A DNA stretch of 64,000 bases from Candidatus Omnitrophota bacterium (GCA_028712505.1 JAQTQC010000001.1:77635-141634), one strand, 5' to 3'; positions 47,701 to 64,000 are shown, counted from the first letter of the stretch. Numbers are program-made.

Positions 47701-50700
47701 TCATTAGGAACTTTAGCTCAAGGCTTGATTCTGAATTCCGATTATTTATCACATTGCCGCATATTGCAATATAAGCTTAATCCATTTTCTGCTAAATCAG
47801 GAAATCAAACTGACCGGTTTATTTGTTTTGCGGGAAAAATCATATTAAATACTCCGGATATTGATGTTTATATTTCTAAGGCACAGAATGAATCCGTCCT
47901 ATCTGCCTCGGAATCAAAGTTGACTTTTGATAATGGTATTTGCAGGCTTGAATATAAGTCGGTAGAATTGACCAAAAATAATCATATTTTCACCTCTCTT
48001 TATGCAAACGGGAAATGGCATTTTTCTCATTTAGCGCATTGGGATTTTAAGAAACAAAATGACCATAAGATTATTGCTCTGGGTAGATGGCCGGATTTGG
48101 CTTTGACTCAGGTCTGGGAAATTGAAGTTGTCGATGGCCGTTCTTTCAAATGGGATGTCAACGTAGAAGTCGAGGAAGAACTGGTTATTGAACAGCAGTA
48201 TTTTTTTATTTGCTGCTCAAGCGATTATTCGCAATGGTCCAGTAATTATGGTTCGGGAGTTTTCCCTGCGGATTTCCGGGAGACCGAAATGGATATGTTG
48301 CAAAGATGTCTTCCCGATGGCGAACTCGGATTTTTAAGCCCGGATGCTAATTTACCCGCATTATGGGTGAAATTTTCCAATGAATTCCATAATTACGCCA
48401 AGATCATAAATTCTAGCTTTTACGAAAAAGCGAGACTAATGCGTATAGATAAAGTAGAGCCTGAAAGGATTAAGAAATTCCTCCCCGGAAAATATCCCTG
48501 TTTTAAACTGGCTATTTCTCCGAACGGGAATAGACAAGTATTTGATCCAGGCTCAAATGAGCTTAATGGAGAGAGGTTAAAGTTTATTTTTAACCAGGGC
48601 AGCGGCCGCGTACTTTGGGAAGGGAAGGAGTTGACCAAGAGGATCGGTTTTTACACTTCTTTATGCTCGGGAGGACGCTGGCATGATTCCTCTTCTTCGG
48701 CAAGGTGGAAGGTTGTTGAGAAAAGTAAGGATGTAATTAAAATTACCGGAGAATGGCTGTATTTGCCGATAAGCCAGTATTGGGAAATAAGTTTAAAAGA
48801 AGACAAGTTTATTAATTTCATTATCAGAATGAGTTTAGATAAGGCTTTGGAGGTCGAGGCCCTGCAAGCAAATCTTATGTTGTCGGAAATATATTCGCAA
48901 TGGGCAAGGCAAGGACAGGCACATAGTTTTCCCGGATTCAATAGCAATATTGATGATAAATGGGATGTTATTTTCTCTTGTCCGTCCGGGCCTGGGGGAG
49001 TGGGGGTAGTTAAGGCGGCAGAAAACGGTTTGTTTTTACCTGCGGTTACTTTGTCTACCCAGGAGGAAAACCCGGGGCAGCTCCTTAATGTTGTAAATTC
49101 CGATATTTACCACAGGGGGAGGGTTTTGCAGTGTTCCAGCACAGGTGCAAGAACCCTGGCCGCGGGCGATTACCAGTATTTTAACGGGAAGATATTCTGT
49201 AGTGGCGATTAAATAAAAGGATGATCTAATGTCCTGGTTGAGTTCAATTAAGGTTTTAGGGAGACATTTTAAATTTTACCTATCCCGGGGGTTAGATTAT
49301 CCTTTGGTTTCTCCGGATATGCTGCAGCTTTGTTTTTTATCCCGTTGTAATTTAAAATGCAAGATGTGCAATGTGCAGGAAAAATATGAAAAACTTAAGA
49401 TCTCGGGTAAGACTTACGAATTAGATTTTAAGACAATGCAGGATTTGATATGTCAGGCAGCGGATATGGGGATCAAGCAGTTATTCCTGATCGGAGGAGA
49501 GCCTTTTTTAAGCAGGGATCTGTTCGATGTCATTAAATTTGCCAGTCACTATAAAATGGATACGGTTGTTTTTACGAATGGAACCCTTTTGGGGAACCTG
49601 GAGATTATTGAGAAAACCTTTGACTCTGGGCTACGCAGTCTGGGAATATCTATTGATGGAGCGAATGAAAATACATATAAAAATATAAGAGGCGAAGGGA
49701 TTTTCGAAAAGATTATAGAGAATGTCCGATTGTTCAATAAAATAAAAAAAGACAGGGGGTTGGTTTCTCCCAGTATAAGCATAGCCTGTACGGTTATGGA
49801 TCAGAATATTGAAGAGTTGCTGGATATCGTAAACTTAGCGAAAAGTTTGGAAGTTGATGGAATAGGCTTCCAGCCGGTGGTTATGAATAATACCGATCAA
49901 AGGTTGAGAGACAATCCAAATCAGAATTGGATACCCCCGTCAAGGTATGCTATACTCGATAAGTCTATAGATCAATTGCTGAAATATAAGTGTTCGAATA
50001 AGGAGAACTTTAAATTTATTTATACCGGGTTAGTTCAGCTAAGATCGATCAAGGATTATTTCAAGGGGGGATCGGTTTTAAACAGGCAAAAATGCTACGC
50101 AGGGTTTAACCGGATAATCATTTCGCAGGATGGAAAGGTATATCTTTGCGCTGCCGAGCCGGATAGTGGAGAAGTAAGCTTTGGGGATATCTATAGAGAT
50201 AGATTAAAAGATTTATGGTATTCCGATAAGGCAAGAATTTTCAGGAAAAGCATAAAGAAATGCAGCAATCACTGTCTGCTAAGTTGTGCTCGCAGGGGTG
50301 AGTTCGATAGATTTATGGATGATTTTTATCGCGGCAATTAATAAATTATGCATCTTTCAATAGTTATCCCTACATATAAAAGATATGATTTACTAAAACA
50401 GTGCCTGGATTCTGTGTTGCAACAGGATTATCCTTTAACCGAATACGAGGTCATCGTAGTTGATGATGCCCGGGATAATCAGGTTAAGGCGCTCTTGGAT
50501 CAATTAAAAGAAAAGCATCCAAATCTACAATATATCGCGCAAGATCATCGGGGTCCTGCAGCAGCCAGGAATTTAGGCATCCGTTTTTCTTCCGGGGAGA
50601 TCGTCGGCTTTATTGACGATGATTGTCTCGTAGATAGGGGTTGGGTAAAGCTGATGACCTTGGCGCATCTAAAGAATCCTACGATAGCCGCTGTAGGCGG

Positions 50701-62700: not shown

Positions 62701-64000
62701 CAAAGAAGCTGACCAGGCCAGGAGGGCGATGAAAAATTGCCAAAAACCCTGTTTGCAGACCTGCTGGGCTAATCCCCAGTCAGATTCCTTAGCCGGTATT
62801 GTCGACGCCTTGATTCATAATCTAAAAAAAGACAGGCTTGATAAGCAGTCCAAGAAACAATTATTATTAACTGCTTTATCTAAATTAACAAGTTACGAGG
62901 AAATGTTCAAGAATGCTTAATCTAAAAGAAGTCATTTTCTCTATTACCAACAGGTGTAATTTAAGATGCAAGATGTGCGATATTCCTTCCGGAGTAGTTG
63001 CTGAGTTATCTACTGAGCAGTGGAAGGATGTAATCAAGGATGCCTCCCGTTTAGGCGCCCAGACTATTGTTTTTAGCGGCGGAGAACCGCTGTTGAGAGA
63101 GGATATCTATGAATTAATCGCCTTTGCCAGGAAGAATAACCTGAGCGCCTGTGTTACTTCAAATGGTTATTTGATTGATGAGCGGACTGCCTTAAAACTC
63201 AGCGAGGTTAAGGTAAATGTGGTCAATGTTTCAGTCGAAGGCGCCAGGCAAACCCATGATTTTCTTAGGGGTGCAGGCAGTTTTGATAAGGCAATATCTG
63301 CCTTGAATAATCTCAAGAAGTATAAAATAGAATCCACTGTGGCTGCAACCGTGTCAAAATATAATTACAAGGATATGCTTTATATTCTAGAGATAGCCAG
63401 GGGATGCGGAGCAACTACTGTGAGGCTGCAGCCATTTAATAGCATTTTCTTAAAAGGCAACGATCGTAATGGCGAATTTTTAATAGATAAATCAGATATC
63501 CCCAAACTTGCCGAGTTAATCAAAGAGTTTATTAACCTTGCCCGGGAATACGGTATTTCAGTTAATCCCGTGGAATATTTGTTGAAAATACCCGAATATT
63601 TAAGCGGGAAGAAATTTTATCCGCTTACCTGCGGTGCACTTTGGTATTCCTGTCCGATAAATCCAAATGGCGATTTGCTTCCTTGTTGGATAGAGGGAGC
63701 GGATAATAAGTTGATCGGAAACGTTAAGACGGAGAGATTGTATAGCTTGTGGTTGTCTAAAAAAAGAGCCAAAATGATCAATGCAATTATAAAAAATGGA
63801 TGCAAGGGGTGTCTGATGAGCTGCTATGACGAGGCATTTACCCGTAAGTTATTAAAAGAATCCATAGCCGGCAATGTCAGGAAGATAAAAAAAATCACCG
63901 ATTACCAGAAGGTGATGAATAAAATTCTGCAACTTTTAAGAAGCCAAATAATAAAACTGAAATTAAAATACAGGTTTTATAGTTCTTACCGGGGTTCATT

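Follow-up and report, generated by a model that had tools for sequence, protein, structure and literature searches.

Twelve consecutive radical SAM genes, one of them fused to a glycosyltransferase, in a predicted envelope-glycan export locus of Candidatus Omnitrophota

Why should a bacterium line up a dozen radical S-adenosylmethionine (radical SAM) genes directly behind a transporter of the type that exports polysaccharides? The question is raised by a stretch of 64,000 nucleotides (nt) from an uncultured Candidatus Omnitrophota bacterium (GCA_028712505.1 JAQTQC010000001.1:77635-141634), hereafter the window, whose deposited proteins, derived from a metagenome-assembled genome (MAG), carry generic names. 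Twelve radical SAM open reading frames (ORFs), R1 to R12, follow one another on its plus strand from 49229 to about 64368, and all of them match PF04055 Radical_SAM (E values of 1e-16 to 1e-29; 60 to 101 bits against a cut-off of 29.5), which places the entire set in the radical SAM superfamily. Tailoring by enzymes of this superfamily has been described for peptides, cofactors, and lipids as well as for small sugar antibiotics; their use on envelope polysaccharides is, to our knowledge, unrecorded. Judged from its genes, the locus is probably an envelope-glycan export locus with a radical SAM tailoring section, distinguished by a fusion of a family 2 glycosyltransferase (GT2) to a radical SAM domain and by a triple mutarotase-like extension of the exporter ATPase. 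We favor, as the probable reading, that it directs the radical SAM tailoring of a furanose-containing surface glycan that is exported by the ABC transporter.

The array comprises 11 twitch-like paralogues, one of which is the GT2 fusion, and one B12-binding class B enzyme (R3). Together with a further paralogue, R0 (2457 to 3554), and a B12-type radical SAM gene at 37 to 1488, the window contains 14 radical SAM genes. Neighboring members of the array are separated by 6 to 18 nt or overlap slightly, and none of the gaps accommodates a free-standing small ORF; this bears out the first-pass annotation, made from the sequence alone, in which the tight spacing was said to leave no room for a precursor-peptide gene. 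The same annotation quoted a CxxxCxxC triad for every member, and all 12 strings proved exact: the SAM-cluster motif is intact in 12 of 12 proteins and starts at residues 15 to 53. Its GGEP(L/F)L motif was claimed just as generally, and we found it in exact form in 7 of the 12; R2, R4, and R11 have GGE(V/I) in its place, R5 has IGEP, and R3 has none. The array had also been described as an uninterrupted run of at least 12 genes that continues beyond the window. A JGI contig (L001), which matches the window with 0 mismatches over 12,223 nt and runs 1.9 kb past it, places the stop codon of R12 about 368 nt past the window end, followed by a 437-amino-acid (aa) GT2 and then by a coiled-coil protein with two transmembrane (TM) segments. 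Since a GT2 follows R12 on this contig, the uninterrupted run is twelve, and only the supposed continuation had to be given up.

The first of the twelve genes, R1 (49229 to 50341; 370 aa), encodes a twitch/SPASM-like enzyme (75.7 bits to PF04055 and 42.6 bits to PF13186). It is followed by R2 (50348 to 52270; 640 aa), the GT2 fused to a twitch-like radical SAM domain, and by R3 (52286 to 53827), a putative C-methyltransferase of class B, to which it was assigned by matches to PF02310 (33.9 bits; cut-off, 32.1) and PF04055 (74.9 bits). The next six members are all twitch-like: R4 (53844 to 55298; 484 aa; 81 bits to PF04055), recognized also by its cysteine pattern and bearing a C-terminal extension, R5 (55280 to 56323; 60.4 bits), R6 (56320 to 57282; 320 aa; 69.4 bits), R7 (57295 to 58425; 376 aa; 60.3 bits), R8 (58432 to 59433; 333 aa; 71.6 bits), and R9 (59441 to 60493; 350 aa; 86.9 bits). 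The series ends with R10 (60494 to 61759; 421 aa), which is twitch/SPASM-like (PF04055, 95.2 bits; PF13186, 25.9 bits), the twitch-like R11 (61778 to 62920; 380 aa; 69.2 bits to PF04055), and R12 (62913 to 64000), another twitch/SPASM-like enzyme (101.4 and 33.2 bits, respectively), whose gene is cut by the window edge and which on L001 is 410 aa long from the ATG of the window and 390 aa long in the JGI gene call. The start codon of R5 is uncertain (TTG at 55280 or ATG at 55298). The JGI call for this gene (292 aa) begins downstream of CxxxCxxC and loses the motif, which lies at residue 37 of the longer ORF (CNLRCKYC), so the longer ORF is required for an intact enzyme.

Which kind of radical SAM enzyme, then, fills the array? 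When the 11 paralogues (R1, the C-terminal half of R2, and R4 to R12) were aligned with R0, the three cysteines of the SAM motif were invariant, and further cysteines fell into common columns: two invariant ones in a hairpin and a C-terminal Cx3C that is usually followed by x3C. These 4 to 5 extra cysteines fit, as far as sequence can tell, one auxiliary [4Fe-4S] cluster of a twitch-like or abridged SPASM domain, the type of BtrN, MoaA, and BlsE, in which a beta-hairpin cysteine pair and C-terminal cysteines jointly ligate a single cluster. A full SPASM domain is defined by a C-terminal seven-cysteine motif, CX9-15GX4C ... CX2CX5CX3C ... C, which holds two auxiliary [4Fe-4S] clusters, and with only 4 to 5 conserved extra cysteines the paralogues fall short of the SPASM subfamily (PF13186/TIGR04085). 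In agreement with this, PF13186 exceeded 21.5 bits only in R1, R10, and R12; it came close to this limit in R8, R9, and R11 and gave no match in R2 and R4 to R7. The earlier count of 10 SPASM/twitch paralogs is revised to 11 mutually alignable proteins, to which R0 also belongs. The shared C-terminal auxiliary-cluster motif noted earlier stands, as a common cysteine pattern short of the complete seven-cysteine SPASM set.

Attempts to name the enzymes more closely gave only distant relatives. In an NCBIfam scan of all 12 proteins, no model reached its cut-off, the best scores being 60 to 130 bits where 170 to 850 are required, with partial matches to the tungsten-cofactor maturase, NirJ, AhbD, MoaA, PqqE, StsB, and viperin models. 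The N_Twi_rSAM model NF033640 scored 52 to 69 bits (cut-off, 170), and the cysteine pattern fits this twitch type. The best matches of R3 were ApyD, TIGR03975, and HpnJ, again below the cut-off. Sequence searches of the PDB likewise returned generic SPASM/twitch relatives only (e.g., SkfB, BlsE, PqqE, CteB, GDGT-MAS, MoaA, and viperin), and BlsE was the best fold match. Because every NCBIfam match lies far from its cut-off, no family can be assigned to the 12 proteins. An assignment to known peptide-maturase families, an outcome that the first-pass annotation had considered, was not seen either, since no maturase model of NCBIfam was matched at its cut-off.

The paralogues are also remote from one another. 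Pairwise identities among them range from 21 to 35%, while each is 37 to 81% identical to its own orthologues in other genomes, and no DNA-level repeats were detected between 36 and 64 kb of the window. The orthologues being closer than the paralogues, and DNA repeats being absent, the duplications are ancient and the array is a set of long-diverged enzymes. Thus, the serial duplication proposed earlier holds with respect to paralogy but not as a recent event, against which the lack of direct repeats in this region speaks.

The N-terminal part of R2 matches PF00535 and carries the DxD motif, for metal and nucleotide-sugar binding, of the inverting GT2 enzymes with a GT-A fold. Full-length homologues of the fusion were found in more than 120 protein clusters at 47 to 92% identity, those with names coming nearly all from MAGs of Candidatus Omnitrophota/Omnitrophica, and across these homologues D90, D92, and E180-D181 of the GT2 domain are invariant, as are the radical SAM and auxiliary cysteines. 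In two loci (L049 and L051), the GT2 and radical SAM halves occur as two neighboring ORFs, which may represent a real split, a frameshift, or an assembly error. A second kind of fusion exists in this type of locus: an array member of L083 (5716 to 7665; 649 aa) is a radical SAM domain joined to a class I SAM-dependent methyltransferase.

The genes directly upstream of the array point to the export of a glycan. A Wzm-type ABC-2 permease (45699 to 46490, plus strand; PF01061; about 7 hydrophobic segments) is adjacent to a Wzt/TagH-type ABC ATPase of 906 aa (46492 to 49212, plus strand; PF00005), and this adjacency of the two families in a glycan locus suggests a role in Wzm/Wzt transport, as the first-pass annotation had noted when it placed such an exporter directly before the array. 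The only NCBIfam match of the permease was the galactan export permease model NF050109 (58.5 bits, below its cut-off). For the ATPase, the best matches were TagH/Wzt models (201 bits, below the equivalog cut-off, versus about 96 bits for NodI), and the galactan ATPase model ranked behind two TagH models. Residues 241 to 906 of this protein (47212 to 49209), about 650 aa, match no Pfam family, and structure prediction folded them into three tandem supersandwich domains of approximately 220 aa that resemble galactose mutarotase. The length of this C-terminal part is conserved across the best 120 homologue clusters, and the three domains are predicted to bind carbohydrate in the cytoplasm.

Further upstream, the first gene of the module (42836 to 44176, plus strand) encodes a flavoenzyme for which Pfam gives the label "amine oxidase" but which is homologous over its full length to the eukaryote-type UDP-galactopyranose mutase (UGM). 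Its residues 16 to 443 align with residues 8 to 450 of the Trypanosoma cruzi enzyme (PDB 4dsg; E value of 7.8e-45), and the Aspergillus fumigatus UGM was matched with an E value of 1.5e-34, while the bacterial model TIGR00031 scored 43 bits against a cut-off of 304. The alignment contains GAGLAGL, DGH, WIYFP, FFR, GYP, and GRYGNWQY, which we take to correspond to the functional elements of the A. fumigatus and T. cruzi structures (the FAD-binding GxGxxG, the His loop, and the substrate-binding motifs W-x-Y-F-P, F-Y-R, G-Y-P, and G-R-F-G-x-W-x-Y). Between the mutase homologue and the permease lies a gene for a TPR protein (44173 to 45663, plus strand; multiple TPR families) with a hydrophobic segment at residues 1 to 23 and with orthologues in some related loci.

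How widespread this arrangement is was assessed by a scan of one genome per species, in which the R2 fusion was found in about 60 loci. A strong match to R2 was present in 54 loci of species-representative genomes, most of them labeled Omnitrophota and some labeled otherwise (e.g., "uncultured Planctomycetales" and Paceibacterota). At least 5.5 kb upstream of R2 is available in 38 of the 54, and among these R2 is preceded by Wzm in 36 loci, by Wzt in 33, and by the mutase homologue in 29. The loci share a collinear module: the flavoenzyme, in some loci the TPR protein, Wzm, a Wzt of about 905 aa, R2, a variable number of radical SAM enzymes, R11, R12, a GT2, a small membrane protein, a B12-type radical SAM enzyme, and one or more GT2s. 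Related loci also contain Wzy_C, PMT_2, Glycos_transf_4, and sugar-nucleotide epimerase genes and three to five GT2 domains each, and in some of them genes for a carbamoyltransferase, an SGNH hydrolase, or a methyltransferase lie within the array.

Besides the fusion, a module carries 3 to 11 or more radical SAM genes, counts that are lower bounds and favor short arrays, since flanks of 10 kb were analyzed and the radical SAM hidden Markov model missed some B12-type enzymes. In loci with both ends visible, 4 to 8 radical SAM genes were found, except for a fragmentary 9-kb contig (L038) with R2 alone; several partly visible loci have at least 9. The smallest version (L004 and L026) consists of R2, R1, R11, and R12, i.e., four radical SAM domains, with a methyltransferase, two more GT2s, and an upstream PMT_2 gene of the GT-C type. 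The closest long relative (L083, whose R11 is 81% identical) has eight radical SAM genes in the array and one downstream, and L082 has at least 11 in a row without counting its unseen R2. Hence, the array does not stand alone: the module recurs in at least 54 loci, and the window represents the large end of a continuous range of module sizes.

To sort the radical SAM genes of these loci, 313 ORFs were clustered on their bit-score ratios with average linkage, in preference to single linkage, which at 40% identity had joined nearly everything; about 41 clusters resulted, 20 of them with at least 3 members. R2, the marker gene of the module, occurs in 54 loci, R11 in 32, R1 in 30, R12 in 28, R9 in 21, R10 in 18, and R6 in 10, and R4, R5, R7, and R8 belong to orthogroups seen in only 2 to 4 loci each (R4 in 4; R7 and R8 in 3). 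R11, the most conserved core member, has homologues in more than 120 clusters at 58 to 100% identity. These data indicated that the module has a conserved core, made up of R2, R11, R12, and an R1-type or R9/R10-type enzyme, and a variable cassette in the middle (R3 to R8 in the window) that draws on more than 20 orthogroups. By analogy with O-antigen loci, the cassette probably diversifies the surface between lineages.

Taking these observations together, we can outline how the locus may work. A carbohydrate substrate is indicated by the mutase homologue, the four or more GT2s, and the sugar-binding domains predicted for Wzt. By homology, the mutase homologue would supply a UDP-furanose, and chain assembly at the cytoplasmic face of the membrane, presumably on a polyprenyl carrier, would fall to the GT2s: the N-terminal part of R2, the enzyme encoded after R12, and one or two more that synteny predicts. 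Each of the eleven twitch-like enzymes, if it behaves like its superfamily, would use a 5'-deoxyadenosyl radical to take hydrogen from a particular C-H bond of a sugar, with epimerization, oxidation, dehydration, decarboxylation, a deoxy product, or C-C coupling as possible outcomes, and the B12-dependent enzyme or enzymes may add C-methyl groups. Because the GT2 and the radical SAM domain of R2 are covalently fused, at least one radical step would act on a sugar that has just been transferred, i.e., on the nascent lipid-linked glycan and not on a nucleotide sugar in free form. More decorations could come from the amidotransferase and the carbamoyltransferase encoded upstream, the three Wzt domains would read the finished chain before Wzm/Wzt exports it, and the SGNH-TPR and TPR proteins, each with a hydrophobic segment at its N terminus, may process or escort it in the periplasm. 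In the comparative pattern, R2, R11, and R12, with R1 or R9/R10, would account for the conserved modifications and the middle cassette for a diversified surface glycan. A glycan-tailoring radical SAM system in place of a pathway for peptides made by the ribosome and modified after translation (RiPPs) had been proposed in the first-pass annotation, and it gains indirectly from the mutase homologue, the Wzt domains, the GT2-radical SAM fusion, and the failure to find a recognition domain or a precursor, while the chemistry itself is one that we infer. In its most far-reaching form, the proposal is that more than 20 orthogroups of twitch-type enzymes edit the lipid-linked furanose-containing polysaccharide itself, functionalizing unactivated C-H bonds of its sugars through epimerization, deoxygenation, C-methylation, or cross-linking, that one of these enzymes modifies what the glycosyltransferase joined to it has made, and that the cassette gives rise to lineage-specific glycans; such a system, which would have no forerunner among radical SAM enzymes in the editing of an envelope polymer, we put forward tentatively and would at present rather doubt than expect.

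Several points weigh against radical tailoring of a surface glycan. We know of no radical SAM enzyme that acts on a polysaccharide or a lipid-linked glycan, and the literature that we searched yielded none. Since most radical SAM enzymes use up a SAM molecule in every turnover, modifying a bulk polymer would be expensive. Two substrate-contacting positions of UGM do not align cleanly with the homologue (a UDP-binding Arg falls opposite Phe, and so does a Tyr), so that UDP-galactose is only a candidate substrate; no priming phosphoglycosyltransferase was evident in the window; and the placement of the two R2 domains relative to each other is uncertain in the predicted structure (pTM of 0.63).

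The most serious rival holds that the radical SAM enzymes act on soluble nucleotide sugars, making one or a few rare or higher-carbon monosaccharides in a multistep radical pathway, which ordinary GT2s then polymerize. BlsE, DesII, BtrN, MoaA, and viperin, all of which have small soluble substrates (nucleosides or sugars), are among the fold and sequence matches, and the gene order is collinear across loci, as it would be for a stepwise pathway. However, a conserved GT2-radical SAM fusion makes better sense if glycosyl transfer comes before the radical step, and a number of radical SAM genes that varies from 4 to at least 12 between fixed flanks suggests optional decoration rather than an obligatory pathway, so that we regard this rival as unlikely, albeit worth serious attention. 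Less probable still is a glycosylated small molecule or glycolipid, of a mycofactocin-like, nucleoside-antibiotic-like, or Nod-factor-like kind, that leaves the cell through the ABC-2 pump. Such pumps also handle drugs and Nod factors, the carbamoyltransferase is NodU-like, the ATPase has weak NodI matches, and both GT2 domains find their best NCBIfam match in MftF (122 to 125 bits; cut-off, 280). Against these stand the scores of the ATPase, about twofold higher for TagH/Wzt (201 bits) than for NodI (about 96 bits), and its three predicted sugar-binding domains, the TPR and SGNH proteins here and the Wzy_C and PMT_2 genes in relatives, which are typical of envelope polymers, the three to five GT2 domains per related locus, and the genomic setting of the module, which in two distant genomes is surrounded by housekeeping genes and not part of an island.

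We consider it very improbable that the enzymes of the array mature a peptide or protein in the manner of sactipeptide, ranthipeptide, or anSME enzymes, with a substrate that is encoded elsewhere and glycosylated by the GT2s, as in glycocins. Partial likeness to StsB, WgkB, PapB, SkfB, SuiB, and CteB in NCBIfam and the PDB is what speaks for it, but the maturase models scored 60 to 130 bits against cut-offs of 340 to 850, and the cysteine count fits one auxiliary cluster versus the two usual for SPASM peptide maturases. No PqqD/RRE domain was detected in the 12 array proteins, nor could one fit at the N terminus, since the SAM motif, at residues 15 to 53, is preceded by 14 to 52 residues. The conserved small-ORF families across about 60 loci included no precursor-like peptide; they consist of the membrane/coiled-coil protein, DUF5989, a protein resembling pilin, and fragments of genes or ORFs at locus edges. 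With neither an RRE/PqqD domain nor a nearby precursor in the window or in these loci, and with nothing like a precursor among the intergenic ORFs of the window, a RiPP cluster is disfavored. Just as little probability attaches to the idea that a lipid (the polyprenyl carrier, a membrane-spanning lipid, or an ether lipid) is modified, as the examples of Tes, GDGT-MAS, Mss, and HpnH might suggest, and then exported by the ABC-2 system. The weak Tes/HpnH-type matches are no stronger than those to many other SPASM/twitch families, such lipid genes are confined to a minority of the Omnitrophota MAGs (for Mss, 15 of 267) and are linked to no such locus in the papers, and the same mutase homologue, GT2s, and Wzt domains favor a carbohydrate.

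Among known systems, the glycan-tailoring locus that we envisage comes closest to the ABC transporter-dependent galactan and O-antigen loci, such as the rfb locus for D-galactan I of Klebsiella O1/O2 (wzm, wzt, glf, and GT2s) and the mycobacterial galactan genes (glf, GlfT1/GlfT2, and Wzm/Wzt). A mutase homologue, Wzm, Wzt, and several GT2s likewise stand in one co-directional run here, and GlfT2 is among the fold matches. Those loci, however, lack radical SAM genes, of which there are 4 to 12 or more in the present module, their Wzt has no extension or a small binding module in contrast to three mutarotase-like domains of about 220 aa, and the mutase here is of the long, eukaryote-like type; all scores to galactan equivalogs in NCBIfam remained below cut-off, so membership is not claimed. 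A precedent for the extension is the carbohydrate-binding module of Wzt in Escherichia coli O9a and Raoultella terrigena, a cytoplasmic C-terminal part that reads the capped end of the glycan before export, but this module is a single small beta-sandwich, whereas three tandem mutarotase-like domains of about 650 aa in total are predicted here. The sugar-tailoring twitch enzymes BlsE, BtrN, DesII, and AprD4 share the fold, at 14 to 16% identity and, for the BlsE model TIGR04466, 63.6 bits against a cut-off of 400; they act singly on small soluble substrates, in contrast to up to 12 paralogues in an export locus, one of them fused to a GT2. Side-by-side radical SAM genes and an MftF-type GT2 are also known from the SynChlorMet (ScmE/ScmF), GeoRSP, and ACGX cassettes and from mycofactocin (MftC and MftF), to which partial matches were obtained (50 to 125 bits versus 265 to 400). 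Yet those cassettes combine one to three radical SAM genes with a short peptide, and the present locus, in which no precursor was found, differs further in having an exporter, a nucleotide-sugar mutase, and TPR/SGNH proteins of the envelope type.

No description of the locus was found in the literature searched on Omnitrophota, radical SAM enzymes, and glycan loci; papers on Xanthomonas proved irrelevant, and those on the radical SAM lipid enzymes of Omnitrophota deal with other genes. Should tailoring of the exported glycan be its function, the locus would open a new reaction space for glycan biosynthesis, in which more than 20 unassigned orthogroups gain a genomic context, and from the GT2-radical SAM fusion one could read off, for one radical enzyme, the type of donor chemistry and the probable substrate. 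Many Omnitrophota are thought to be ultra-small and host-associated, and the product of the module may be a defining surface structure by which cells attach, prey on others, or escape phages. Even under a different reading, twelve conserved radical SAM genes in one array without an assignable family remain as a testable puzzle.

Upstream of the mutase homologue, a series of plus-strand genes fits the decoration of a glycan. It begins with a WbuX-like N-acetyl sugar amidotransferase, a PP-loop ATPase (36963 to 37964; TIGR03573, 176.8 bits, cut-off 203; PF06508 QueC, 23 bits). A 483-nt gap before the carbamoyltransferase is occupied by two small hydrophobic ORFs: one of 83 aa with a TTG start (37978 to 38229) that has no Pfam match, is of uncertain coding status, and may not be a gene, and one for a small membrane protein of 53 aa (38246 to 38407; DUF5989, PF19451, 31.8 bits, cut-off 27). 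A DUF5989-like small ORF family recurs in 3 loci, one of which (L066) also has a carbamoyltransferase homologue. The carbamoyltransferase itself is of the NodU/CmcH type (38447 to 40135; PF02543, 261.7 bits; PF16861, 245.1 bits). It is followed by an SGNH/GDSL hydrolase with a TPR insert (40135 to 41430; PF13472), probably periplasmic, with a hydrophobic segment at residues 3 to 33, and by a second SGNH/GDSL-TPR protein (41423 to 42742; PF13472, 53.8 bits; hydrophobic segment at residues 4 to 34).

About 43 kb upstream of the array, at the start of the window, lies a candidate second module on the plus strand (37 to 5877; Pfam). It consists of the B12-type radical SAM gene at 37 to 1488, an SGNH gene (1433 to 2434), R0, and a gene for a 773-aa protein (3556 to 5877) with approximately 12 TM segments and a subthreshold match to PMT_2 (GT-C). 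The first of these belongs to class B (PF02310, 49.4 bits; PF04055, 76.7 bits) and is divergent, with 27% identity to R3, while R0 has every cysteine column of the paralogues. This module is possibly related to the main array; in L004, a PMT_2 gene lies directly upstream of the counterpart of the main module.

On the downstream side, relatives of the window have, after the GT2 that follows R12, the small membrane/coiled-coil protein, a B12-type radical SAM gene, and one or two GT2s; by analogy, a thirteenth radical SAM gene, of the B12 type, is likely to lie two genes downstream in the genome of the window. The gene for the two-TM coiled-coil protein was located at 13691 to 14143 in L001, 13745 to 14491 in L080, 13689 to 14207 in L081, 13688 to 14560 in L082, and 13690 to 14127 in L083. 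Its product varies in length from 114 aa (in L004) to 290 aa and has internal repeats in the genome of the window, features that recall a chain-length ruler. Of the four loci that reach further downstream, two (L080 and L081) have a Wzy_C gene next, on the opposite strand. Downstream of the glycan locus in the same two (L080, 18451 to 21143; L081, 18793 to 21143), an ORF of 33 to 65 aa, two ATP-grasp genes, and a KamA-like (LAM_C) radical SAM gene were seen, which may form a separate peptide-modification module.

As for the window as a whole, all ORFs with an assigned function lie on the plus strand across the 64 kb, the cumulative GC skew rises monotonically, and the G+C content of the locus is slightly below that of the upstream housekeeping genes. 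These include pyrimidine biosynthesis genes (8.2 to 20.8 kb) and V-type ATPase genes starting at 20.8 kb, whose subunits at 23.7 to 27.8 kb were identified from their position alone. In the distant locus L004, V-type ATPase genes also precede the module by a few genes; in all, the module adjoins V-type ATPase and other housekeeping genes in two distant genomes. An Rfam scan of the window returned three tRNAs only, with no riboswitch or other RNA. An ORF at 30878 to 32881 encodes a 667-aa protein with a subthreshold N-terminal PilZ match, one TM segment, a coiled coil, and faint glycoside-hydrolase or epimerase-like matches in its C-terminal region, which from these features might be a c-di-GMP-responsive envelope protein.

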